A DNA stretch of 34,084 nt from Psammoneis japonica (lineage: Eukaryota): positions 1-34,084 of the forward strand of contig QPGO01000180.1 of NCBI GenBank assembly GCA_008632985.1, read 5' to 3'. The notes below the pieces were generated by a model. The model was not told the origin of the DNA and made no database searches. It saw nothing but the letters and a program-made list of their open reading frames with translations. The position numbers and the translations under genes are program-made. Positions 3,561 through 20,075 of this stretch are shown here, piece after piece. Position 1 is the stretch's first letter. Each line of letters begins with the position of its first letter.

Positions 3561-4331
3561 TCATCTAGCAGACAAAAGTCGCGACTGAACATTCTGCCTT
3601 TGTTCTTTAGTAGAAATTGCTTCCTGTGTACTCCGAGTACAAATCTTACACGTTGGACTCTTTCTAGATGCTCCCTTTTCTGACCATTGCAAACCTTCAA
3701 TGAGATCAGCAACGCAACGATGGAAATGAATCTCATCTCCGAGTTCATTTGAGATGCCACAAAGCCCGCGGAAGGATTTCACAAAACTCTTTTTATATCT
3801 CCCGTACTCAAAGAATGACTTTGACATTTCTAGTTTTTGCATTGGTTTTTTGTTCACAAAGTCGTGGAATTCGGTGTGAGACAAAATGTCAGCCATGTCT
3901 TGCAACAGTCCCACTGTACACATGGTCAGTGTTTTTCTTGCTTCAGTAAAGTAATCTTCTACCTCTTTATTGTCTTTCTCGGCAGCCTCATTTGCCATGT
4001 GATGAATGTGACGGTCGGCGAGCCTGAGCTTGGTGCGGACCAAGGACAACCTGGCGCCATCTTCCATGTGTCCTTTCGCCTCACGAAGATGAAAGCCGAC
4101 TGTGCGTTTGAAATTTACACCAAATTGATTCACTTTGTCGAGCCAGGCATCATTGAATGGTTCACTCTCGATGCTGCACAGAACACTGTCAAGACAATCC
4201 ATGAAGTTGCACGCGGGCATGTCAATCTTTTCAGAGGATGGAGCGGCATTGCCAGACAGTTTTCTTTGTTTTTTTTCTACAGCAGAGGCCGCCGCTCCCA
4301 AAGAAAGAGACAACAAGCACAAATGCTTCAT
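3561..4331 (-). CDS. Hypothetical secreted protein (256 aa)
   Basis: Uninterrupted ORF with signal-peptide-like start MKHLCLLSLSLGAAASA. No family recognised. Confidence 0.6.
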   Translation of the reverse strand: MKHLCLLSLSLGAAASAVEKKQRKLSGNAAPSSEKIDMPACNFMDCLDSVLCSIESEPFNDAWLDKVNQFGVNFKRTVGFHLREAKGHMEDGARLSLVRTKLRLADRHIHHMANEAAEKDNKEVEDYFTEARKTLTMCTVGLLQDMADILSHTEFHDFVNKKPMQKLEMSKSFFEYGRYKKSFVKSFRGLCGISNELGDEIHFHRCVADLIEGLQWSEKGASRKSPTCKICTRSTQEAISTKEQRQNVQSRLLSAR

Positions 4332-4429
4332 GCTGTTTCGTCAAAAGAGGCAACCTCTGGAGTGGGCTGTCTTTGATCAGATGCGGCACTCGGCAAAAGT
4401 GAGAACCACGGTGCTGATGACACCCACGA

Positions 4430-4793
4430 CTGATCCTCGAACTCGAAGCAAACCGACACAGGCCGGCAACGAAGTTACGTTGATTTCTGCACAAGCAAAA
4501 AAGGATTCGCGCGGCATTTGACCAAGACGAATCTTTTTCCTTTCACTGCTTTCACGCATCAATTTGCCGGAGACCTGAAATGTTTCAAATTGGATGCTTC
4601 TCCATTTTGTTTTTGTATCTGATCCTCGAACTCAAAGCGAACCGACACAGTGACGAAGTCATGTTGATTTCCACAGCAAAAAAGGATTTGCGCGGCATTT
4701 GACCAAGACGAGTCTTTTTCCTTTCGCCGCTTTCATGCACTTGTTTGCCTGAGACCTGGAACAGTTCAACTTAAAAATGCTTCTCCATTTTGT
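4430..4793. repeat. Degenerate tandem duplication of about 180 bp (copies begin at 4430 and 4619)
   Basis: Both copies start CTGATCCTCGAACTC, share GCGCGGCATTTGACCAAGACG and end ATGCTTCTCCATTTTGT. Confidence 0.9.
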
Positions 4794-5883
4794 CACTTTT
4801 GTGTGCTGCTGAGCTGCCAGCATGAGAAAAGCATGCTTGTCAATCAAGCAAAAAGCTTTGTCCACTCAAGCATCTACTGGCACTGCTCCACTTGATGCGC
4901 AGCGCTCCCGGACCCCGGACCTGCCCAAAAGAAGAATTTCGCCATGCTCAAGCACAGAGGGCCTGGGCAAAAAGATGAACAATCAAGCTGACTCCAATGT
5001 TGTGTTGATCAGTGCATGATGCAGTGTGCCAAATGACATCTGCTCTGTTGCTGCAGATGACTCATCCCCAGCAGCGCCTCTCTTGCACCACATGCTGCTG
5101 CGCGTGTGAGCAGTGCGACGAACTGCAGGACGAGGATGAGCACGAGTCAAAAATTTGACTGCAGCATGGCAGCAAGAATTGGGCATGTTGATGATGCATT
5201 TTTTGATGTGCTTCAAGTGACTGTGTTGCCAAAAAGCAGAAAAAAATCTCTCTTGTTGATGCGCAACAAACAAAAAAAGTGCAGTGCGCCACTTGACTGA
5301 AAACGAAAATGAGGGTGGGCGTTGAACCAACAAGTCAACGTTGCCAAAGGGAATCCTCTGAGGCTTCCTGCGCTGCTCGCTGCACTTGTCCTGGTTGCCA
5401 TGGTCGTCCTGATTTGCCCAGAAGCTCTCAACAAACTTCAAGGTTGGTGAGATCGGGCAAAATGAGCGAGAGCGCTCATTTTTGCAAGGTGTCGCCAGAC
5501 TCGCTGCATCAGGATCCGAGACATCTTCTCTTCAATGGCTCTGCTTCCAGGTTTCTCACATTCCTGCTCATTCTAGATGCTCCAACAGTGGGAGCAAAAC
5601 CATCTGTCAATCACAGAGTGCAGCTGTCTGTCCTTTTCCCACAAGCACATCAGCAGCGTCGTTTCTCCCACCTCCTCTTTTTTCTTGTCAGCTTCACCAC
5701 AATGCACAGAGCAACAACAGCACATGCAAAACATTTCATTCTCCATGACAACCTTTTCCAAACTGAATCACAACATCAGTGGATGGGCCGGTGCTGGAGC
5801 AGCAGCCGAAGGAGGAGGTTGAGCAAAAGCTGGAGCCGATCAATTTGAATTGAGATTTCGAAATTTTTGGTTTCCCTCCAACA
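4620..5883. other. TpA-depleted, TG/CA-rich island; probable hypermutated repeat relic of unknown origin
   Basis: Only three TA seen by eye (about 4772, 4875, 5574) in about 1.26 kb. Overlapping Cys/His-rich, Tyr-free ORFs in many frames. Confidence 0.75.
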
Positions 5884-6129
5884 TACATCCGGGTTTTTAA
5901 AGTAGAGCTTGTGTAGATTTCTACGTGCCTGAATTGGAATCGTCGTGACGCACTCCACGCGCGACAACGAAAATAACTGAAGCGAGCTTGTCTCGAGACT
6001 GACTCGTGAGTCACAAGAAACAAGAAGCCCCCGCCGCAAGCCGCAACATCGCAGAAGTCTCAAAAGTCAACAACAGCAAAACAAATTGGAGCCCACGATT
6101 GCAAGCTTTACCGTTTAACTTTGAACAAA

Positions 6130-7506
6130 ATGGGTGATGGCGACGGCGTAGTGAGAAATGAAGAAACACCTCTTCAAAGCAACACTGGGTCGAATACTCT
6201 TGCCATCTGTGGTCGTGTCCTCAACGTTGGAGCGATTGGGTGTCTGTCGATTTGTGTCGTGTTTTTGTTTGTTCAATTGCAAGCGGTGACGTATAAGGTT
6301 GCCGCTGATCACCAACAAGTAGAGCAACAAATAAAGCAACTGCAGGATCAAATATCGAATGAAGAGACACAAACGCAAGAAATCGAAGAAGACGTACAAA
6401 CACAACACAATCTGACCGTCTATCACATGGCTGGGACCTTTTCGCTCTTGACGTGTCTTATAACCATGTTTCACATGTCGGCGCACCTTCGAAATTTCCA
6501 TCAACCCATTATTCAACGCAAAATTTTAGCCATTCTCTGGCTGTCGCCAATTTACAGCGTCACCTCTTGGCTGAGTTTGGTGTTCCCCGCTGCCGATGGG
6601 TATTTGGGAATCATTAAGGATTTTTACGAGGCCTACGTGATTTATCAATTCCTTTCGTTCCTCATTGCCGTTCTGGGGAAAGGAGATCGGGACGTGGTTG
6701 TGGAAGTACTTGCCCAGCATGCGGACCATTTAGACAAGCCCTATCGATGCTTAAACTGCCTGTACCATCCACCACCGAACGAGGGCGATCGAGCCATGGC
6801 GAACGCAGTGTTGCTGCAATGTCAAGTATTGACCATGCAGTTCGTACTCTTTCGCCCACTCACGTCTATCCTTCGGTTCATCCTGGATATAATTGAAGAT
6901 TACCACGACAATGATACAGGCTCTGACACGTCAGGTTACGCTTTCTTCATGTCTGCCAAATTCATCATTGCCATGATTCAGAATGTGTCTGTCTTTTTGG
7001 CGTTTGCGGGTCTACTCAAGTTCTACCATGCCGTCCGAGAAGATCTGGCGTGGTGTCAGCCCTTTTCCAAGTTTTTAACCATCAAGGGTATTGTCTTCAT
7101 GACGTTTTGGCAAGGCCTTGTGATTATGATTGTGTTCAACATTCACCAAGGTGGAAGTGACACAGAGGACGACAACGACAGCAACAATCCCATCGAGTCG
7201 CCTATGTCTATTCAGAATGTGCTCATTTGCATCGAGATGCTTTTGTTTTCCATAGCTCACTGGTGTGTATTTCCAACGGAAGAGTGGGAAGACAACTACC
7301 GTATAAAATACTACGAGAAACCAGGTTTTGGTTTCAAAGATTTTGCACATGATGTAGGAATGATTGTCAGTCATGGTAAAAAGGCCAGAGCAACAAGAAG
7401 TAAGAAGCGAGAGGGGTTGGAACGAATTCCAACGGACGAAGACAATGGCCCGACCTTGGATAACGAAGGTCTTGACAATGACGATCTCGTCGAACGATAT
7501 GCCTGA
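6130..7506 (+). CDS. TMEM184 / organic solute transporter OST-alpha family membrane protein
   Basis: QRKILAILWLSPIYSVTSWLSL, DFYEAYVIYQFLSFL, QFVLFRP, KFLTIKGIVFMTFWQG and QNVLICIEML motifs. Multiple transmembrane segments. Confidence 0.92.
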   Translation: MGDGDGVVRNEETPLQSNTGSNTLAICGRVLNVGAIGCLSICVVFLFVQLQAVTYKVAADHQQVEQQIKQLQDQISNEETQTQEIEEDVQTQHNLTVYHMAGTFSLLTCLITMFHMSAHLRNFHQPIIQRKILAILWLSPIYSVTSWLSLVFPAADGYLGIIKDFYEAYVIYQFLSFLIAVLGKGDRDVVVEVLAQHADHLDKPYRCLNCLYHPPPNEGDRAMANAVLLQCQVLTMQFVLFRPLTSILRFILDIIEDYHDNDTGSDTSGYAFFMSAKFIIAMIQNVSVFLAFAGLLKFYHAVREDLAWCQPFSKFLTIKGIVFMTFWQGLVIMIVFNIHQGGSDTEDDNDSNNPIESPMSIQNVLICIEMLLFSIAHWCVFPTEEWEDNYRIKYYEKPGFGFKDFAHDVGMIVSHGKKARATRSKKREGLERIPTDEDNGPTLDNEGLDNDDLVERYA

Positions 7507-7618: not shown

Positions 7619-9205
7619 TTAGGCGGTAAGAAGCTGCCAAGCCTTCTTCAGCTTGCTGCCTGCGGACGAGAGGCCCCTTTTCTGGTCATAGTCGGGAACA
7701 AGGAGTTGCGATGCATCCGTAACAGGTTTGAAGCCCTCCGGGAAAACATCGCTTTGGGCAAGAACGCTGCACTCGGTCGGACTGGCACAATAGACTGCCT
7801 GAACAATTTCCTGAAATGCCACCCATCGGTTCTCTTCTGCTGACTTGTCGGCGGCAATCACCATGATGAGAGCCACGAGACCATCTTCTCCGGTGCATGG
7901 GACAGGCGTATCGTTAACAAGCGATTCACAAAAGGCCACAGTCTCTGTGACATAGGCCTCATTGTATCGAGAGAGGAAGAAGTCATACGGCATATCGGCG
8001 TTTCCAGTGAAATCTGTGGGCCATCGCGGGACGAAGCAGAATAGAAATGAGTAACACTACAGGCAACGACACAGTTGTAGGGCAGCAAAACTGTGACTTA
8101 CCGCTCTTGAACACTTTGGCGGTATTTGGGTAAACATTGTCAGTTTGGATCATTCCTTTGGTTCCAAGTACCTCGGCACGCTGGTCGTAGCCATATGAAG
8201 ACTGGCGGCACACATCGACCATTGCTGTCACGCCGTCCGGATAACGAACAACGCATGATGCCGTATCATATTTCTCAGACCCATCCAAAACTTCGATAGA
8301 CTTGTCAATATGAGTGGATCCAACAGCAAGGATCTCAACGGGATCAGTTCCCGCAAGGAATCGAGACATATCCTGCAAAGAGAAAAAATCCATTGAGTGA
8401 TATGAGTCCCACAAAAGTATGAAACATGGACATAAAGCGAGTGATTCCAAACCTACCAAATCGTGTACAGCCATGTCTGCAAATATGCCTCCGCCGCCTT
8501 TGACATATTCAAACGGAGGAGGTGCGGGATCACGGGAGCACAACTTAATCATGATGTTTTTTCCAACCTCATCATGTTCGATGGCGGTTTTGACACGTTG
8601 AAAGTTCTGATCAAAGCGTCTCTGCAAACCAATCATAAGTTTGACACCAGCTTCGTTACAGGCGTTAATGGCCTCAACAGTTTCAGGCAAGTCTGTAGCG
8701 ATTGGCTTTTCACAAAAGACGTGCTTCCCATTTTCAGCACAAGCCTTGATTTGATCGGCGTGGTATTGAGACGGAGAGCAAATCCAAACAGCGTCCACTT
8801 CCTCATCGGTAATGACATCCATTGCGTCATCACTGAACCTGGGAACACCAAAATCAGCAGCGGCTGGAAAGAAAAACAAAGAGTGTGGGTGAGGTTCTGG
8901 CTTGTCTTCGTCCCCTACTTCGCATATCGGGGTTGACAATACATCAGACGCAACACACCTTTCTCGGCCTTCGAAATTGTGGGATTAGAGACAATTACGG
9001 GAGTGACGTTTGGAGCTTTTGTAATGGCCCCAAGATGCACCAAACCGATTCGACCACATCCAATAACGCCGACCTTGATGTTCTTTTCGGCGGAAGATGC
9101 CTCAACATTCATTTTGAGAGCTGATCGTCGGATACCCGCATTTGTGAGGGTAAAAGCCTCAACTCCAGGAGCGAGAATCGCGAGGAAAAGAGCAAATACC
9201 CTCAT
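7619..9205 (-). CDS. Myo-inositol 2-dehydrogenase-like Gfo/Idh/MocA oxidoreductase, copy 1, probably plastid-targeted
   Basis: Rossmann VGVIGCGRIG, HVFCEKP, QRRFD, SRDP, DMAVHDLD and YGYDQRAEV motifs. Four exons with GT-AG introns 8864-8958, 8373-8456 and 8014-8101. Signal peptide ending VEA-F, resembling the diatom ASAFAP motif. Confidence 0.92.
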
Positions 9206-11419
9206 TTTTGACTGCTTCGCAATCTCCTCCGATTGGCAATTCCTTCGACAAGACGTGTCAACAGCCGTCGGGGGCTTCTTTGTCTCGCTTCGGTGTGTCT
9301 CAAAATCTTGTGGGAGTTGGGAGTTCAAAAAACGCGCACGTCAGTGGTTTCGAGCACCCCTGAGCGGGGAATCTGGATACGAGAACTGCGGGGTTCGTTG
9401 ATTGAGTGAGTCGTATCGTCGTCTATGTTTCGAAAACACATTCATCATTCATCGCCACAATGAACATTTCATACCCGCATTGACATCCACTCGGCGGTTG
9501 TCAATTTTTTTCGATGTCCTCCCCTTGAATGGCTTGGAGAAACATCCGAATGGTGGCTCTGCCCACCTTGGCCACTCTTTGTTCTTTGTCAGCCACATTT
9601 GATGGACAAAATCGGCTGCTGTGCCAACTTTGTAGTTCACTCATTTGAGAGAGGGCGAGAGAGAGTGTGTGTGTTGAGCTGACAAAGTCAATGTCGCCAA
9701 AAGGGAGTCCTGTGAGGCAGGTTTGCTGTGCTGCTTGCCACACTTGCCCTGGTTGCTGTGGCAGCTGCAGCTTGCCTGGAAGCCCTCAATGAACTTTGAC
9801 TTTGCAGCATGACAGGCACCCACTGATGTCACAGTGCAGTTTGTGTGAGCCAGATGATTCGCTCCAAAGAGTGAGACAAAAAAAAGGTTGGCAAGATCTC
9901 TGGCAGGTGCACATTCACACGTGCAAGGTCACCAGATCCACCACATCAGGAGTCAAAGTGCCCTCTCTTCAACAGCTCCGGGGTTCTGACATCTCCTGCT
10001 CATTCCAGATGCTCCAACACACTTCTGCCACTCTTGTTGATGTTCAGAGTGCTTGCTCTTCACACACCAGAGTGGCCCCAACAGGGATCTCTGCAACAAA
10101 TCTGCTGGCCCAATCTTCTTGGTCATCGCTGTCATCATCTTCCACTTTGGCGCACTGCCAGTCAGCACGTCACTTTTCGTCAGCAAAATTCAACATCTCA
10201 TTGAGCGCATCATCTGTGACATCTCGTGTGCACTCCACAAACTTGACAATGCAACCACAATGACTCCACTCCACTGAGCTCATCACATGCTGAAGGTCAA
10301 GGAGCAATCAATCCATGACCCAGCCATTGACCACTTTGGGGCCCAACACAAAGAATCCTGTTTTCTGACAAGTCCATTTTGTTCCGGGTCTTGCATTGTT
10401 GATGTTGGGACCAAAAAACAGCACCGACTTCTGTGCATCAAAGAAAAGTCCATTCTTGTCTCACACCATCCCATGATGGACCTTGCCATGCTCACAGACT
10501 CTCAGACTCTCAGACTGAGCTTCACGAGTGGCCCACAAACCCCCTTGTCATCCATGCCATGTGCTGGACAGCTGACTGTTGACACATTCAGAAGCACAAG
10601 AGCATCTTGTCTGTCCAGCACAAGCTGAAGATTCCTGTTCCTGGATCCAGCAATGCATTGGTCCCAAGAGTGTTTTTCTTGGACCTGCTGTGCTCTTTGT
10701 GATTTCAACAACATGCCTTGCCCTGCAACTTGACGTCAAAGCCAGTCATCTGCCAGAGTCCACTGGCCTTGTGCACATTCATTCCATGCATCTTGGTGTC
10801 ATTCATTGCACTCCTGGCATCATGCAAGGAGAACATTGGTGCAGTGGTGGACACACACCTCAATTGATTTGGCGTCCAATGTCTCACAGTGTCATCATGC
10901 AACTCTCTCATGGCACCGTGTCTTTGCTTCCACAGCTCTGCCCACATTGGCTTGAGCAAAATTGCTGGTGTCTTTTCACAAGTGTGGGTTGATCATTGGT
11001 GATGTCCCATTGCTTGCAAGCCATTGCATGAGTTCTTCTTTTGCATGCACAAAATGCACTGTTGCCTCCCTGCCACATGTTCTGGGACAATGTCCGCTTC
11101 ACTCCTCTTTCTTTTGCTCATTGTTTTGGTTGCATGTTGCTCTGTGGAACAATGAATCCAGACCATCAAACCACACCCAACAATTGCTTGGCTGCTCTGA
11201 TGTGATTGGTTCAAAAAATGATGCAACACCCAAAGTTGCAGTGGTGTTGTCACTCACAACTGTCACTTGCTGTCACAAACCATGTGCACATTCTTTGAGG
11301 CTCTTCACTCACCTCATGTTTGCACTGAACATTGAACTTTCAAGGATCTTTCACTCACTTCTTGCATCAGAATTCTTGTCTGACATCACAAAAATCATGA
11401 TCCGCTCTGGACGTGCTTT

Positions 11420-14400
11420 TGTCCAACTGCCCACAAAGGCTTGTTGGAACTTTTGAAACTTCTTGCCCTGTGATGGCTTTGTCATGAAGTCTCAGTGTTG
11501 TCAGCAGGACAACACTGTGCTTGTGAGCTGTCCTTCTTCTCAATTTGAGCAGCAACAAAGAAAAAATGCAGAATGTTGAGTGCTTGTGACTGCTTGCCGG
11601 CACTCTTGCACCCATCAGCTTCCAGCAGGATGGTGCTCTTGTTGTCCTGGCATGGGATGTTCTTGTCAATTGGGTGCTTTTGGTGCTCCATGAATGACTT
11701 TTGTCCATGGCATCATGGTCACAGCATCATCAACTCCAACAAGCTCAGCTTCCATGCTGCTTCAGGTGTTGAGCTTCTGGTGCTTCAAAGCAGCCTGCAC
11801 TTCTCCATTGCTCGTTGTCACAACACCTTCAGCGTGGCTCTTGAAATTGAAATGTGCTGCAAATGATGTGCCCGCATGCCACTTGACAACTTGGAGGTCC
11901 TCATGCTTCATGATTGATGCAGCAACTTTGTTTCTTGTCTGGTTCAAACACTTGAGACAATGGACTGGCTTCCCCCCAATCTTGTTGGCAGGAGATCTTG
12001 CCCACATGCATGATGTGGTGACAGTGGGGCGCACATCCATTTGGCCTCTCTTGGACACACAAGTGTTCCCTTGGCCACTGACATCAAAGGTTTGAGCCTT
12101 CTCATCTGACAATCTTGTTGCAGCGTGCATGCAGACAAAAGGTTGTTTTTGTCATGACATTTGTGACTTTTAAAGGCTGCAACACATCACCGTGATGCAT
12201 CAACTCTTGCAAGCAGCTGGGTGTTGCATGATGCATGGGGAGGAGTGCAACATCCAGCTGCACGTGAGAGTCAATGCATCATGGCGACATGTTGCAGCCT
12301 TTAAAAGTCACAAAGGTCGTGACAAAAACAACCTTTTGTCTGCATGCATGCTGCATTGTTGTCAGGTGTCAAATGTCTTCTCTCTCTGCATGGTGTCATG
12401 GCAAAATCTGCACTCTTTAACTTTTCCAGAACAAGTTGATTGATCATCTTGCAAACATGGTCTGCCATGTTGACTTTCACTTTGCCCTTTTGGCTGAAGT
12501 TCAGGGTCATGCCAAGATGGTCATGTCTCCTCCTTTGTGCAGCAATGACTTCACCATGATGGCTTCCACACATCTCATTTAGCCAGCCCAAAAATTTGTC
12601 ATTTGCTTTTGGGTTCTTGTGGTTTGATGACAACAGGTCATCAACATGGAATTAAATCATGTGCTGCTTGCCATTGACAGTTTGATTGGCAATGCACAGA
12701 TCATGTGGGTTGAATTTAGACCCTGTCTTCTCCAAGTCTTGGTGCAACCAAACATGCCACAGCGAAGTCGTGTGACCAACATGCCACAGATGGCTCTGAT
12801 GACTTTAATGCAAAGGACTCTCTTGCCTTTCTCTGGGGCCAAACAAGGTCTGTGCAGGTTGGCATCAATGCTTTCTGGCATGTCCACTGGCACTCCTGTG
12901 ATCTTCATTGCCAGGAACATGAGCACTCGTTTCACATTGCAGCCTTTGTGGGCATGAACAATTTCAAATTGCCGTCATTTACATCCCCACAAGGCATGCA
13001 GCAAGGCTGGCTGACTTGTCTTTGTCCGGCCATTCTCAGGTCACTTTGCCACCACAAATCATTCACCTTTTTGTGCAATTGTTTTAATTCTTGGTGCTGA
13101 CACACTGGTGCAAAGCACACTCAGTCATGCAACTGTTTGTTGATTGCTTTCTCTGAGGCATCACACCCCTTCTGCCAAATGCTTCAAGGCCTTCATGGAG
13201 CAAATGTTGCTGGCAAAACATGCACCCTCTCCACTTTGGAGTTGGCCATCAATCTCACACAGCAAGTGTGCGGCCATTGCTGTCTCTGCTTCATGTTCAA
13301 TGTCATCCTCTGGATTGGGACTTGTGTTGGGCTTGTGTTGCTCCTTCACCACTTTTCCGGCATCTGCCACTCCTTCAAATTGAGCTTTCTTCTCTTGGTG
13401 TTTGTGTGACGCCATGTTGAAGGATGCCCTGAGTGTTTTGCCACTTCTTGCAGCTCTGCTTGACACAGCTGTTGTTTCTTCCTCCAGTCATTCACCTTCC
13501 CATCTTGTTTTTTCCTGGGATTCTTTGTCCTCTTTGGACTCTTCACTCTCACAGTGTTCATCTTCTGGGTCATCGTTGACCTCTTGCTCTTCTTGAGCTT
13601 TGCATTGTCAATCAGGGCTGGTCCTTTTGTCAGCCATTGTGTGTTGTCTGCTTCATCACATTCATCATCTGAGAGACAGGTTCATCTTGACAGTCTTCAT
13701 CTTCTGACTCAGTTGCACAGCTTGCACCACATTTGCTTTCTTTGCTTTTGTCATCCCTGTTGTGGTTGCTTTTGGTTTTGTTGTTGTCCACTCCTGCAGT
13801 CCAATCAGCATTGCCTAAATTGTCTCCACATTTTCCCACAAATTTGAACTCCTGCTTGATGCCTTGTCCAATGGTCACATCCTTGACAGCTGCAACATGC
13901 TTGTTGGTCAAGGAAATCTCATGGAGGTGCACTTGCAGGGATTCAATGACTTGTTGCCCATGTGCACCAGGTTCATGGCATGGTGTCTGCGCCTTTTGGC
14001 AAACCAAAATGTGGTCACAGGCAGATGCTGCCAACACCATGTGCTTCTGCAGCATTTGTTTTCTCACTCTTGATGTGGGAAATGACAAGTTCCCCAAACT
14101 CAAGCTGAAAGTGTTTGTTGCAGTCAAGGTCACTTGACAGTGTGTGTGGACTGCGTTGGAAATCCCTTCCTTTTGCAGGCACACATTAAACATGGCAGTG
14201 TTCTTTATCTTGGCTTGCTCGCACATCAGCTTGGGTGTCATCTTTTGTGGCACATGATTGCAGTGGCTCTGGTTTGCTCCCTGATGGTTTGAATGTTCTG
14301 CTCAACCTCCAGAATGTGGTCCTTGGCATTTGCAGATGTGAGTTCTAGAGTCATGCCATCCACAACTTGGAGCCACACTTGACAAAGTCAATCTTGAACA

Positions 14401-16280
14401 GGGCCACATTGTGCTGTCAGAGAATCATGTCCAAGGCTTTGCAAATGTGATCATGCTTCTTGGACCTCAGCATCACACTCAATTGACATTTGATTGTCTT
14501 GTCAACTGCGCGCAGCAACTCAGCACCTCATTCTTCCATGACATCAATGCAGAGGGTCACACCTTCTCTTTGCTTCTCATGAATTTCAGGTGAAATGTCA
14601 ACAATGTCATTCCTCTCACAGGAACAACATGCACACTTGGTCTTGCCTTTCAGTGCATCTGTTGGTGGACCCCAAATGGCTGTCATTCTGTCCACATCTT
14701 CAGGGATGATGGGTGGGTTCTGCACCTGATTGGACTGCAAAAGCAGCTTGAGATCCCTTGCACTGGGCATTCCAGCCTTGCAGTGCAGTCTGAGTGCTTC
14801 CTCATTGCCCACCACTTCTCATTCTTTAGTGCAGCTTTTCACATTCTGTTTCACAGCAGTGACAATTGCTCCTGATGAACTCCTGTGCTTCTTGTCCATC
14901 TTCTTCATGACCTTCTTGTCCTTTGACAGCATGCTCACATGAAACTCATCTTTTTGGAGCTCTTTTGCATGGTTGAGGAATCGCTGGCTTGGTGCAAATG
15001 CATGCAGTCTGATGTCATTGACTTTAAAGACCATGACTTGTTTTCCACAGTCTTCTCATCTGGTGGATGGAGCTCACCTGCTGCCTTGTTGTCATGTGCA
15101 ACATGGTGCTTGCTCTTCACATCTTTTAGACTCAGGATTTTTGCCATCATGCTCTGTGACCCAAGCTTCACATCACTCTGTCCTGGCATTGTGCAGCATT
15201 CATCCAAATCCTTTGTTGGTGGACAGATTGATTTTGATCATTGCTGGTCACACATTGTGCACTGGTTTCCAGCTTGCCGCCATGCTGAGGGCAGAGCCAT
15301 TGTCAAGGATGATCTCATCTGACTTGATGCCCCTGTTGGCTTGGCTCAAACTCATCTGTGACCTTTCATTGGCCTGTTCATCTGCTTGGAACCCATGTCA
15401 AACAAGATTTCTCTTGCTCTTGCCAGAGCTTGCTGATTGACTGGATCTGTGGTGGGTGCCCACACTGATGTTGTGTGGCTGCTCACTGATTCAAACAGTC
15501 TTCATCTTTTTGTGCATGACTGTGTCCCCTGGCAACCGGTTTCCCGCCGATGTCTTCTTGTGCCATCCTTCTGCAGGATCTCATCCCTGTGCTTGCAGTC
15601 TGGGGCTTGTGGTTTGGCACACTCAGGGCATGACCATGGTCTTGTGGGTTCCTGGACTTGTTGTCAGCCCTGTTTCCATTCTTGTTGCTGGGACAATCAT
15701 TGTTCTTTTTGTTGTGATGCTTGCAAGGGTCGTTGTTTTTTAGATCATTCAGTGGCACATCCATTGCCTTCTCAAGGGTCTTCAGATGTGGGTCAATTCC
15801 TGGACCACAATCTCTCACAAGGCTTTGCTTGAGGCTCTTGCAGCATCGGTCATCACTGCTCTCCATGAACAGAGGCATGTGGTCCACCATGTCTCATGTG
15901 CTGGCATCATTTGGCACCTGCTGTGCTGTGCCAATGCTGTTCTTGCACTCCTTGGCATTATCAACAAAGCCATCTGGCATTCTGCTGCCAAGACCATTGC
16001 TTGTGGCATCTTGTTGACTCATAAATCTTGATGGGCAGCCAATCAGTGATTCACCCTCTTGTTGTTGCATGTCCGACATGTGCTTGAGAGACTTGGCAAG
16101 TGTGCAGAATGGATGTTGACCTCTCTCACAGAGTCAAACATTGGTGGCTGGATCAGCTTCAACAGCTTGACAGGGTCATCTCTGAAGCTCTTGCATTTGT
16201 GATCGGCTGGCACTCTTTGACTCATGAGCTTGGTGTGCAGCAATCATCTGGGATCACTGCACACCACCCAGAAAATCCAC
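11420..16280 (-). mobile_element. Degenerate Ty1/copia LTR-retrotransposon internal region (diatom CoDi-like): gag-PR-INT-RT-RNaseH
   Basis: Gag DDPVKLLKLIQ and PHLKTLEKAMDV (about 15700-16275). Protease IILDNGSALS (about 15300). Integrase IWGPPTDALKGKT, VTLCIDVM and DHILEVEQNIQTIRE (about 13900-14830). RT RAICGML, FHVDDLLSS and DHLGMTLNFS (about 12000-13100). RNase H QKLNT*SSMEAELVGVDD, QDNKSTILLE and MTKPSQGKKF (about 11420-11910). Many stops and frameshifts. No LTR pair found. Confidence 0.93.
12119..12355. mobile_element. Foldback/MITE-like element: about 110-bp inverted arms around a 17-bp spacer, inserted in the copia RT
   Basis: The left arm TGCAGCGTGCATGCAGACAAAAGGTTGTTTTTGTC matches the reverse complement of the right arm, which ends ...GACAAAAACAACCTTTTGTCTGCATGCATGCTGCA. 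Flanked by direct repeats TTGT at 12115-12118 and 12356-12359. Confidence 0.85.
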
Positions 16281-17640
16281 AACAATGGCTGGCCTCCCAG
16301 CACAGAAGGAGCAAGCTCAAAGTGAGCAATGGACAAACAAGAGTGACAGAGCATGGCTGCACATGGGTGAGCAACATGCTGGCAAAGTCATGCACACAGA
16401 GCACCAAACAAAAAAATGTCAAGCATGGCACCACCACATGTGTGGCCCACACCAAAGACAAAAGACAAGCGCAGTCAATCAAATTTTCTCTGTGTGCAGG
16501 GTCATCAGAAAACACAATGCCAGCCTTTTTGTTGTGCTGTTTCCAGTGCTGCATCACTGGAACCTGCTTGCCACCCAGCAGGGAGGAGCACAGTCAAAGG
16601 CCAGGGGGAGGCAGCTCAAAGCTGTGGCATTGCACAGACTCCTGGTCTGTGGCAAGAGTGGCGGCACTTTTGGTCTCATCTTGCTCAAGCAGGTTTTGAC
16701 AAGACATGCCAAAACACATGAGCAACGCAACAGAATTTGGGGCATTTTTGCTGATTTGCAGAGAGGAGGTGCAAAGTCTTGCATGTGTCCACCACAGCTG
16801 TGCCAGAAAGAGTTGTCTCTGGGCTTCCAGAGAAGAGCTTCACAAACAAACAGAGTGTTTTTCATGTGACAACTGGGGTTTGGTTGCCCCAATGACTGGA
16901 GAGGCTGACCATCTTTTTGCTGCCCAATGGCACCCACCCACAAGAACAACTCTTGGATTTAGAAAGAAATTGCAAGGGAGTTGCACAAATGAAGACACAC
17001 CTGAAACTGTGCAGCATGCTGCAGCACAAGCATCTGAACCTGCATCACTGCCCCAGGTTTCATTTTTGAAGCACTGAAAAATGTGACATCTTGTGTGACA
17101 GAACAACTTTTTCAACCATGACACTCTTCCAACTTCTTGTCAAACACACAATGTGGTGCAACTCTTTCCCTGTGACAAAGTCAGGGCATGGGCCAGATCT
17201 CTCATGGCTGTGACCTGGCAGCCAGGTGTGCATCAACTCAATGTTTGGCACACAGTGTTGCCAAAGCAAACAAGTCAGCCACATGATGGCTGACTTGCAA
17301 CATTTTGGAGATTGGAACCAAAAGAGGCAGACTTCAGGTGGCCTCTCAGGCCTCAGAGTTGGGGAGACAATGTTAGCCTTGAGTTGTGAATTTCTCGTCT
17401 TTAGAGCACGGCAGGTGTGTGTCTTTCTCTGTTTCCAAATGCTTGGAAAACTACGATATTTCATAAACTCTGTAAGATGTCGTTTGTTTGCTCTACGTAA
17501 TCCAGCATATTATCACGATTCGAGTCCAGGAAATCACCGTTTCCGTCAAATCATTCGTCAATGACTATTGGGCGCCTTTGTACACGAAAATTCCTTAAAC
17601 AAGCCAATCCAACCATTGCTACTTAGTCTCAAACCAACAG

Positions 17641-19235
17641 TTAGGCAGTAAGGAGCTGCCAAGCTTGCATCCACTTATTTCCTGCTGATGAGGTGCTTTT
17701 CCGTTGGTCATAATCGGGAACAAGAAGATCCGATGCATCCGTAACAGGTTTGAAGCCCTCAGGGAAAACATCGCTTTGGGCAAGAGTGCTGCATTCGGTT
17801 GGAGTGGCGCAATAGACTGCTTGTACAATTTCCTGAAAGGTCACCCATCGGTTCTCTGCAGCTGACTTGTCCGCAGCAATCGCCATGATGAGAGCCACGA
17901 GACCATCTTCTCCAGTGCACGGGACAGGCGTGTCGTTCACGAGAGAATCACAAAAGGCAACCGTCTCCATGACATAGGCCTCATTGTATCGAGAGAGGAA
18001 GAAGTCATAAGGCATGTCGGCGTTTCCAGTGAACTCTGTATGTCGATCGTGCTGGTGAGCCAGATGTGACAATGAATAACTCCAATGTCAACCGCAAATT
18101 TGTAGGAAAGCAATTGTGACTTACCGCTCTTGAAAACTTTGGCAGTATTTGGGTAAACATTGTCTGTTTGGATCATTCCTTTGGTTCCAAGTACCTCGGC
18201 ACGTTGGTCGTAGCCATACGAAGATTGGCGGCACACATCAACCATTGCCGTCACGCCGTCCGGGTAACGAACAACGCAGGATGCCGTATCGTATTTCTCG
18301 GACCCTTCCAAGACTTCGATAGACTTATCAATATGAGTGGATCCAACAGCAAAGATCTCAACTGGATCAGTTCCCGCAAGGAATCGAGACATGTCCTACG
18401 AAAACGCCAAATAATCAATTGCTGTGAACCTTAGTCCCAATAGCATAAAAACTTTACAAACAACAAGTGATCAAGACCTACCAAATCGTGAACAGCCATG
18501 TCTGCAAATATGCCTCCGCCACCCTTGACGTACTCAAACGGAGGAGGTGCAGGATCACGGGAGCACAATTTAATCATGATGTTTTTCCCAACTTCGTTAC
18601 CTTCGATGGCAGTTTTGACGCGTCGAAAGTTCTGATCAAAACGTCTCTGCAAACCAATCATTAGTTTGACACCAGCTTCGTTACAGGCGTTAATGGCCTC
18701 AACGGTCTCCGGCAAGTCTGTAGCGATTGGCTTTTCACAAAAAACGTGCTTTCCATGTTCGGCGCAAGCCTTGATTTGATCGGCGTGGTATTGAGACGGA
18801 GAGCAAATCCAAACAGCGTCCACTTCCTCATCGGTAATGACATCCATTGCGTCATCACTGAACCTGGGAACACCAAAATCAGCAGCGGCTGGAAAGAAAA
18901 ACAAAGAGTGTGGGTGAGGTTCTGGCTTGTCTTCTTCCCCTACTTCGCAATCGGGGTTGACAATACATCAGCCGCAACATACCTTTCTCGGCCTTCGAAA
19001 TTGTGGGATTGGAGACAATTACGGGAGTGACGTTTGGAGCTTTTGTAATGGCCCCAAGATGCACCAAACCGATTCGTCCACACCCAATGACGCCGACCTT
19101 GATGTTCTTTTCGGCGGAAGATGCTTCGACATTCATCTTGAGAGCCGATAGTCGGGTCCCGGGACTATTATTTGTGAATGCAAAACCCTCAACTTCAGGA
19201 GCAAGAATCGCGAGAAAAACGGCAGCTATCCTCAT
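17641..19235 (-). CDS. Myo-inositol 2-dehydrogenase-like Gfo/Idh/MocA oxidoreductase, copy 2, probably plastid-targeted
   Basis: Near-identical protein to copy 1 with the same intron positions (18889-18982, 18396-18481, 18036-18124). Signal peptide MRIAAVFLAILAPEVEG-F. Confidence 0.92.
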
Positions 19236-20075
19236 TTTCCGGCTGCGTACAATTTCAACCACTTGTCCTTAGAGTAGAAGCTTGGACAACGAGTTGTGAA
19301 GAAATGAAACAACCGATGACTTCTTCGTCTGCGGACCTTATGTTCGACATACGACACCAGTTTTCCGCGTCGTTGCACGTCGAACAATTCTTCGGGTTCC
19401 ACCCACGCACGTCAGTTCTTTTTGGCGCACCCTTGGCGGTTTTGAAAATTTGACATCACATCATGGACAATTTCTCCACGAAATCCACAGTATCAGATAT
19501 ACATACGGCCCATTCAAATAAAATCACTACTTGTATTTGTATGAGACATCTGTTCGCTGGTCAGACAGTTTCCTGGAATGACGTGGAGTCGGCGGGAACT
19601 TCCTCTTGACATACAGTACATCCTTTTTTTCTTCTTCTCCAGGAGAGCGTTGCCGACATGTTTTGAATGAATTTAGATGCGTCCGTGTCAATTGCAGCAC
19701 CTCGTGTTGTCCGCTAAGCAAACGTCATGCTTGACAGCAATTTACTGTACCTCTTTGTGAGTATTGGTGGTATTTTCTCTCGGTTACTTTGACGCCGCGG
19801 AAACAGGGTCTTCTGCGGGCGGCCTTGCGTGCTCGATTCACTCGATTGGCCATCATCGGTTGACTGAAACTCTCGTGATGAAATACGGCTTTCGATTGAT
19901 ATCCCAAAGATACTCTTGCTGAGCTAGTTTGAGTAGGCGTATTTGTGATGCAAAGTTCCTAGTGTTGTCACAATTGTGGCACAACGCCAAAGTGCACGTG
20001 TTTTACCTTCCCACTACGGTACGAGGAGATTCAAGCGGACAAAGTCCGTGCTCCCATTTCTTGGTAGCAGGTACA

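Follow-up and report, generated by a model that had tools for sequence, protein, structure and literature searches.

Flank-Dependent Loss of TpA in a Decayed Copia Element of the Diatom Psammoneis japonica

Introduction

A recent preprint by Mettrop et al. describes TpA hypermutation of integrated nucleocytoplasmic large DNA virus (NCLDV) and virophage DNA in the alga Bigelowiella natans (bioRxiv 10.64898/2026.01.13.699255). According to the preprint, transposon domains are found among the TpA-poor genes too, the de novo rate is raised about 1000-fold, the process being active in a subset of lines, and an ADAT2-type deaminase is proposed, not demonstrated. Here we describe the loss of TpA from a decayed Ty1/Copia-type retrotransposon, and from a miniature inverted-repeat transposable element (MITE) inserted in it, within a 34,084-nucleotide stretch of the diatom Psammoneis japonica (contig QPGO01000180.1; this whole stretch is called the window). 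By analogy, the diatom process would work like the TpA hypermutation of B. natans, the closest known system. In both, as far as the account in the preprint goes, T/A to C/G transitions occur almost only at TpA, give TpG and CpA on both strands, and are local, falling in foreign-derived or inserted DNA; in the diatom, host genes are spared. The two differ in their targets, NCLDV and virophage DNA in B. natans and a Copia relic and a MITE here, where erasure is near-complete and CpG loss lags behind. They differ also in the kind of data, since de novo rates were measured in B. natans and the diatom offers evolutionary comparisons only. The main text of the preprint contains no flank analysis, and the words "context," "flank," "trinucleotide," and "diatom" occur in it 0 times. 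Our literature searches, in which most subscription journals were not covered, returned no report from a diatom and no flank rule; the sole account of the phenomenon that they turned up is this 2026 preprint, which concerns a different alga.

Repeat-induced point mutation (RIP) of ascomycetes changes C to T at CpA and thereby creates TpA. It is triggered by duplicated sequence as such, involves a RID-type methyltransferase, and takes place before meiosis. Like the diatom process, it is confined to repeats, acts on two strands, and makes context-biased transitions, which inactivate transposons (as described in bioRxiv 10.64898/2026.01.13.699255). Its chemistry is opposite, however, as TpA is created by RIP and erased here, where C-to-T change at CA is not raised in the strongly mutated segments. 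TadA-based editors, in the reported data on sequence preference, favor a preceding T, and a following C raises and a following A lowers their activity (PMC8989541); Escherichia coli TadA edits UACG (PMC12265680). In these reported preferences for 5' T, for a following C and against a following A, the TadA and ADAT2 enzymes and the TadA base editors resemble the diatom process. Natural TadA and ADAT2, however, edit tRNA; activity on DNA has been engineered and depends on single strands being exposed. Specificity for TA is also far higher in the diatom process. Within patches of mismatch repair, polymerase eta mutates WA hotspots (W, A or T), and a TA step counts as a hotspot on each strand (PMC7884765); in somatic hypermutation it resembles the diatom process in producing TA-to-TG changes near deaminated cytosines. 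In its WA motif AA ranks high, ahead of CA and GA; here AA is minor (0.009), CA (0.011) is at least as frequent, and strand-coordinated clusters are absent. Finally, ADAR editing would give A-to-G changes in runs on the transcript strand, whereas here both strands are changed and no runs are seen.

Results

Residual TA Steps in the Island

The island in which TpA and CpG are erased spans approximately 9480..17440 (features cited without a strand have none assigned), with observed/expected ratios per 500 bp of about 0.00-0.14 for TA and 0.04-0.30 for CG and with sharp edges. Over the island the TA ratio is about 0.04, against about 0.4-0.7 in the flanks, where CG is near 1; in a 500-bp scan of the window, TG and CA reach about 2 in the island. 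An earlier note on this DNA, confined to 12171-17375, had stated that nearly all TA left there abuts a run of T or A, with TCTAGA as the main exception. It held that TA between a 5' purine and a 3' pyrimidine (RTAY) is hit hardest and TA next to an A-tract is protected, as expected for an enzyme or DNA-shape preference. The depleted island starts near 9480, rather than at 12171. The sites quoted in that note are all exact (TTTAAA at 12171, 12302, and 15025; TTTAGA at 12717, 15127, 15741, and 16960; TCTAGA at 14346); the contexts TTTAAT, TTTAGC, TTTAGT, ATTAAA, CCTAAA, and CATAAA are present as well, and GTAC, ATAT, GTAT, and ATAC have 0 occurrences in 12171-17375.

This stretch retains 21 TA steps, of which 17 are YTAR, 4 mixed, and 0 RTAY. 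TT or AA adjoins 18 of the 21, against 170 of the 1227 TG/CA steps of the same stretch. The absence of RTAY has a probability of 2e-4 with the flank proportions of host DNA and of 2.4e-3 with the flanks of the block's own TG/CA steps; for at least 16 YTAR the respective values are 1e-9 and 1.6e-7, the true count being 17 and the test having been made with 16. Another 28 old copies of the element show the same bias: their 215 TA steps in 89.5 kb comprise 136 YTAR, 79 mixed, and 0 RTAY. Young copies are rich in RTAY (207/556, with 83/556 YTAR), as are the host flanks (283/848). The survivors thus do not match ancestral NTAN frequencies, given that young copies are RTAY-rich and old copies hold 0 RTAY. 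The assembly searched comprises 91 Mb; locus L026, which overlaps L003, was left out of the flank counts, the prediction counts, and the alignment of relatives, where eight loci repeating earlier ones were also skipped.

Context-Specific Rates from a Young Copia Family

The check proposed in the earlier note, context-specific rates from alignments of transposon families, was run on a young Copia family separate from the window's element, and it revealed a strong dependence on flanks. A real copy (L121) served as reference, and five near-unmutated copies define 240 TA sites; the fit includes 14 test copies, 3222 observations, and 60 site-bootstrap resamples, with a separate intensity for each copy and 600-bp bin and with the long terminal repeats (LTRs) excluded. 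Relative to T in the +1 position, directly 3' of the A that changes, the rate is 1.05 (0.78-1.28) for C, 0.39 (0.25-0.54) for G, and 0.22 (0.14-0.27) for A, and A at +2 slows it to 0.50 (0.33-0.67). At -2 the rates relative to A are 0.65 for C, 0.57 for G, and 0.56 for T; at -3 they are 0.78 for G, 0.54 for C, and 0.34 (0.23-0.45) for T. The fitted spread over hexamers is about 50-fold, with AATATT fastest and TTTAAA slowest, and the strand factor over the whole element is 0.89 (0.76-1.04). Effects at -4, -5, and +3 (twice the log-likelihood difference, 20-35) are not claimed, because they come without bootstrap and from pseudo-replicated observations.

Direct tracking of ancestral sites gives the same order. 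In the pair L031 and L057 (88-90% identical), TA is kept at 2/64 RTAY, 11/90 mixed, and 12/29 YTAR sites, so that RTAY is indeed hit hardest, as had been proposed. In a dose series from a second, young family TA is likewise kept least at RTAY and most at YTAR, for example at 6/73, 27/94, and 15/27 sites in L079. The rule of a 5' purine and a 3' pyrimidine is refined by these data: dependence on context stands, with the +1 base as the main determinant (pyrimidine above G above A), while the 5' purine is largely the +1 rule read from the other strand, a 5' G (0.57) being slower than a 5' A (1.0). YTAY sites became TG in 82/96 cases and RTAR sites CA in 16/18, and the inner flank decides which strand is changed. 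Forcing symmetry on the inner flank costs 117 units of negative log-likelihood (nll) and on the outer positions 11.6; a strand-specific inner rule is combined with a roughly duplex-level outer one. Sites mutated in two copies carry the same product in 0.47-0.76 of cases, and mutation events are mostly independent across copies.

Prediction outside the Family

The fitted matrix, derived from another family, was applied to the window. Seventeen of its 21 TAs fall among the slowest 26 of the 256 hexamers, with TTTAAA first and TCTAGA sixth. TA density is 10/98 in the slowest bin against 1/875 at predicted rates of at least 0.45; other old copies give 76/1017 and 9/9864, and in host DNA the slope is opposite (32/352 slowest, 458/2729 fast). 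In a second family (L091 against L092 and L100), TA is kept at 23/54 slow sites and 7/163 faster ones. The step in TCTAGA (14346..14347; TA in 2/5 relatives) is free of tracts and was therefore singled out earlier, yet it is no exception, because its hexamer is predicted to be the sixth slowest of 256.

Protection next to A-tracts holds only in part and, in the form proposed, is not supported. TTTAAA is the slowest hexamer. TTTA exceeds VTTA (V, not T) by factors of 8.0 in the window and 3.3 in the remaining old copies, an enrichment that young copies and host DNA do not show. Longer tracts are no better, as TTTTA compared with VTTTA gives ratios of 0.79 and 1.34 (p 0.8 and 0.11). TCTA is protected too (6/223 in the window, 68/2604 in other copies), and AATA, with its 5' A-run, is among the most erased contexts (0/277 and 4/3157). 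Tract terms add little to the fit: the inner-flank model has an nll of 2226.4, which falls to 2164.8 with position terms (-3 T, +2 A) and to 2217.1 with tract terms, and adding TTTA/TAAA terms to the full model changes it from 2132.3 to 2130.3. DNA shape may have a share in the outer-flank effect, since that effect is of similar size on either strand and TTTAAA is slowest; tract length does not contribute.

Spectrum, Strands, and Order of Loss

In strongly mutated (hot) segments of the copies, A-to-G changes are found at 799/2026 TA, 42/3829 CA, 26/2887 AA, and 13/3876 GA. In weakly mutated (cold) segments the corresponding values are 2/2280 for CA and 5/2205 for AA. The weak activity of hot segments at these two side targets shares the 3'-pyrimidine bias (65:26 for CA, 49:26 for AA). 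Both strands are changed, the products being TG in 1156 and CA in 913 cases. Strand-coordinated runs among neighboring mutated sites were not found (all |z| < 2), and strand-coordinated bursts are accordingly rejected. Since TA is lost equally at the three codon positions (kept 0.17, 0.18, and 0.19) and the rule is present in a non-coding MITE, we reject an explanation by selection on reading frames.

CG-to-TG change is raised in hot segments (81/3249 against 6/1606), and CA-to-TA is not (6/3816 against 6/2281). TA loss precedes CG loss both in the dose series, where L079 keeps 246/255 CG despite its loss of TA, and in a second island of the window, at 4000..5900, which appears to be at a younger stage (TA ratio 0.00-0.20, CG largely retained at 0.62-0.86). 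CpG loss has little flank preference (kept 0.59-0.76). With regard to duplication as the trigger in RIP, several copies of a multicopy element that are 98-99% identical are nearly untouched, and an 88% tandem duplicate of a host gene 10 kb apart is untouched.

In partly mutated copies of the young family (L121-L140, e.g., G000:C37:567997-574574), TA is almost entirely lost just past the 5' LTR and progressively less so along the element, with the 3' LTR affected last. Since the products differ between copies, this 5'-to-3' polarity recurs independently; the process may nucleate close to the promoter or 5' untranslated region and spread from there. Many Copia copies (L032-L060) have open frames of 500-2200 codons at TA ratios of 0.14-0.3; their proteins are degraded by missense change (loss of Tyr) only, because TA to TG or CA never turns a sense codon into a stop.

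Survivors and Newly Arisen Sites

The residual TAs had been described as surviving sites, which is correct for some of them. The six heaviest copies contain 74 TAs, 43 ancestral and 31 new, and many of the new ones derive from CA or TG adjoining T. A CG origin accounts for 2 of these 31, and double CpG transitions as the source of all residual TAs are rejected. In the window, calls of survivor or new site are tentative, because they are based on alignments of 62-77% identity with no unmutated close copy; 9633, 16960, and 17374 are without an aligned relative.

Ancestral sites would be those at 12171, 12302, 12580, 12717, and 14346. The first, in TTTAAA (12171..12172), reads as a true survivor, with TA in 28/31 copies of the MITE family, and TTTAAA at 12302..12303 is its mirror in the other arm (25/31); being the same site in two arms of one MITE, the two are not independent. 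TTTAGC at 12580..12581 is a probable survivor (relatives: TA 7, TG 13, CA 13, other 11, n = 44), and TTTAGA at 12717..12718 appears to be another (TA 14, TG 13, CA 8, n = 35). By the same alignments, 12418, 12806, 12980, 14187, 14206, and 15959, where most relatives carry other dinucleotides, may be new, as may 12653, which aligns to CG in 3/4 less-mutated relatives. The step in ATTATC (15959..15960) is the sole one in a fast context (rank 210/256); TA is present in 0/3 relatives, a contig of a public sequencing run has C at 15960, and the step is probably newly made. At CATAAA (16022..16023) a public-run contig reads CA, which suggests that erosion is ongoing between alleles or copies.

Elements inside the Island

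The pol region of the retrotransposon lies at 10600..15400 on the minus strand, a range that comes from alignments to 29 other old copies. Over positions 12415-12651 the identity to a frame that bears RVT_2 at another locus of the genome (L158) is 58%; the reverse transcriptase (RT) fragment of the window by itself matched no Pfam family and no phage record. The search for an unmutated close copy of the window's element found none, the best matches having 66-84% identity. The MITE at 12119..12355, internally shortened, with 110-bp terminal inverted repeats, belongs to a high-copy family and is inserted in the RT region. It covers 8 TA sites of its family, of which the 2 in TTTAAA are retained and the other 6 lost; the context rule is visible in this non-coding element too. 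Unlike the family of this MITE, that of a 330-bp high-copy MITE within the RT of a young Copia copy (L091, about 2078-2405; G000:C160) is TA-rich and barely mutated. A second MITE family (L102-L120) carried too few mutations to be informative.

Discussion

That a context-dependent mutator has been directed at repeats in this genome is, in our opinion, nearly certain. As for its chemistry, we lean toward adenine deamination. The explanation we consider best as a whole, a flank-dependent TpA mutator of repeats that presumably works by deamination, has by our estimate a probability of about 0.58. After insertion, such a mutator would act on repeats and, site by site and on whichever strand, change the A of TpA to G, which would give TG or CA. 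The rate is set by the flanks, with the base 3' of A strongest, and old relics hold slow-context survivors together with new TAs that passed the same filter. The reaction may be conversion of deoxyadenosine to deoxyinosine in chromosomal DNA by an enzyme of the TadA/ADAT type, possibly recruited to silenced (CpG-methylated) repeats. We propose only tentatively the fuller scheme of a natural, repeat-guided DNA adenine deaminase of diatoms, almost wholly specific for TA, which would attack the A of T-A-pyrimidine on the two strands of chromosomal DNA, begin just past the 5' LTR of a retrotransposon, spread in the 3' direction, and serve as an inverse-RIP defence shared or convergent with Bigelowiella. 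We know of no natural enzyme established for targeted A-to-G mutation of nuclear DNA.

Several observations weigh against this explanation or narrow its basis. The chemistry is ambiguous, because the sequence data fit A-to-G on one strand and T-to-C on the other equally. The TadA-like (L141) and ADAT2-like (L145) genes of the genome resemble housekeeping tRNA editors, and L141, with residues matched by our own alignment, has Asp at the position where the B. natans paper, in its passage on DNA editing, calls Asn pivotal. Side targets here reach about 1-3% of the TA level, which is far sharper than the figures reported for TadA8.20 on RNA, 22-35% at side targets against 60-69% (PMC12265680). When only the 3' part was fitted (163 sites; L069 and L077 dropped for their history in common with L066 and L080, and split pieces of two elements counted once each), the strand factor came out at 0.66, with the same +1 order, against 0.89 (0.76-1.04) over the whole element. 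Moreover, the rates come from one family in which some copies have a common history, the same-state fraction reaching 0.76; hot segments are also placed differently along the element from cold ones; and in the MITE family the rank correlation between rate and survival is weak (rho -0.40, p 0.12, 16 sites).

Some of these points bear on an alternative we think unlikely, a lesion on T, in which the T of R-T-A in repeats would be oxidized to 5-hydroxymethyl- or 5-formyluracil and pair with G, giving T-to-C. 5-Hydroxymethyluracil is found in dinoflagellate repeats. This mirror reading fits all counts equally, and a coding-strand excess of T-to-C in the 3' subset would suit it; however, that excess is gone over the whole element, and the side activity retains an A-centered 3'-pyrimidine rule but is less strict about the 5' T, as one would naturally expect of a deaminase pocket. 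A search for Tet_JBP gave no match, but its control gave none either, so that the search carries no weight. Less likely still is error-prone patch repair, where T:G mismatches from deamination of 5-methylcytosine would recruit a polymerase eta-like enzyme and WA steps nearby would be mutated. The WA hotspots described for polymerase eta in mismatch-repair patches (PMC7884765) and the joint rise of CG-to-TG and AA-to-AG in hot segments are what it would lead one to expect. Yet A-to-G at AA (0.009) is about 40 times below that at TA (0.39, near saturation) and not above that at CA (0.011), strands are not coordinated, and TA is erased long before CG.

A flank-blind TA mutator, with stiff A-tract DNA or nucleosome exclusion shielding some sites, would account for the enrichment of TTTA over VTTA and for the near symmetry of the outer positions. 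It is very improbable in view of the cost of forcing symmetry on the inner flank, the tract terms that bring no improvement, the lack of extra protection by longer tracts, and the protection of TCTA but not of AATA. We give hardly any credence to the remaining TAs mirroring ancestral NTAN frequencies or being all new with a biased origin. New sites are indeed common in the heaviest copies, and several window sites align to other dinucleotides, but the RTAY-rich young copies and the selective keeping of YTAR at tracked sites contradict this reading, the ancestral-frequency part of which is refuted by the tracked sites, the dose series, the flank counts, and the fit. ADAR-like editing of transposon transcripts before reverse transcription is just as far from credible. 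The genome has two A_deamin loci, and ADARs are described in the B. natans preprint as favoring 5' U (bioRxiv 10.64898/2026.01.13.699255); the near equality of strands, the absence of strand runs, and the effect on a non-retro MITE stand against it, and the two-strand pattern refutes it unless sense and antisense edits were both copied back.

Under the flank-dependent mutator that we favor, change of A in T-A-pyrimidine, with the few TAs left in the slowest contexts, is a fingerprint for a mutating defence. The hexamer rule is a test for candidate enzymes: TAY above TAG above TAA, penalties for +2 A and -3 T, and a weak side activity at CAY and AAY. It can also be applied to the 231 de novo mutations of B. 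natans, to learn if the machinery is shared by both lineages. That residual TAs combine survivors with new sites matters for dating such repeats.

Two further observations concern deaminase-like genes. The A_deamin loci (ADAT1/ADAR-type) are distinct, one being L171 (C40) and the other L172/L173 (C79). The gene L144:316-1791 (G000:C79:87000-90170, minus strand) encodes a nucleoside/nucleobase deaminase domain fused to a 2OG-Fe(II) dioxygenase (DIOX_N + 2OG-FeII_Oxy) and probably serves base catabolism.

Genomic Setting of the Island

Two copies of a host GFO/IDH/MocA oxidoreductase gene, both on the minus strand, flank the island as tandem duplicates and serve as a control. Copy 1 (7619..9208) and copy 2 (17641..19238) are 88% identical, TA is erased in neither, and they have 35 TA in common and 8 TG/CA differences in each direction. 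The duplicate thus brackets the island at 10-kb spacing, yet its TA is spared. Another host gene, at 6130-7503, has named homologues in diatoms (Thalassiosira, Cyclotella, Skeletonema, Seminavis, Epithemia, and others).

Contigs of the public run, which may be of the same sample and whose record names no platform, are near-identical to the island, with 3 differences over 9753-11486 and 11 over 15753-17800; because of this close match an assembly artefact is disfavored, with the same reservation about the sample. No RNA holder was among those listed. At 16278-16279 and 13984-13985 these contigs read TG for CA in the window, or the other way round, so that a single dinucleotide has gone opposite ways in two alleles or copies. 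The younger island at 4000-5900 holds a tandem repeat of 181 bp (4430-4793) and a 43-bp match to 9719-9761; it also overlaps an unassigned 259-amino-acid frame (3561-4340, minus strand) in that frame's 5' half.

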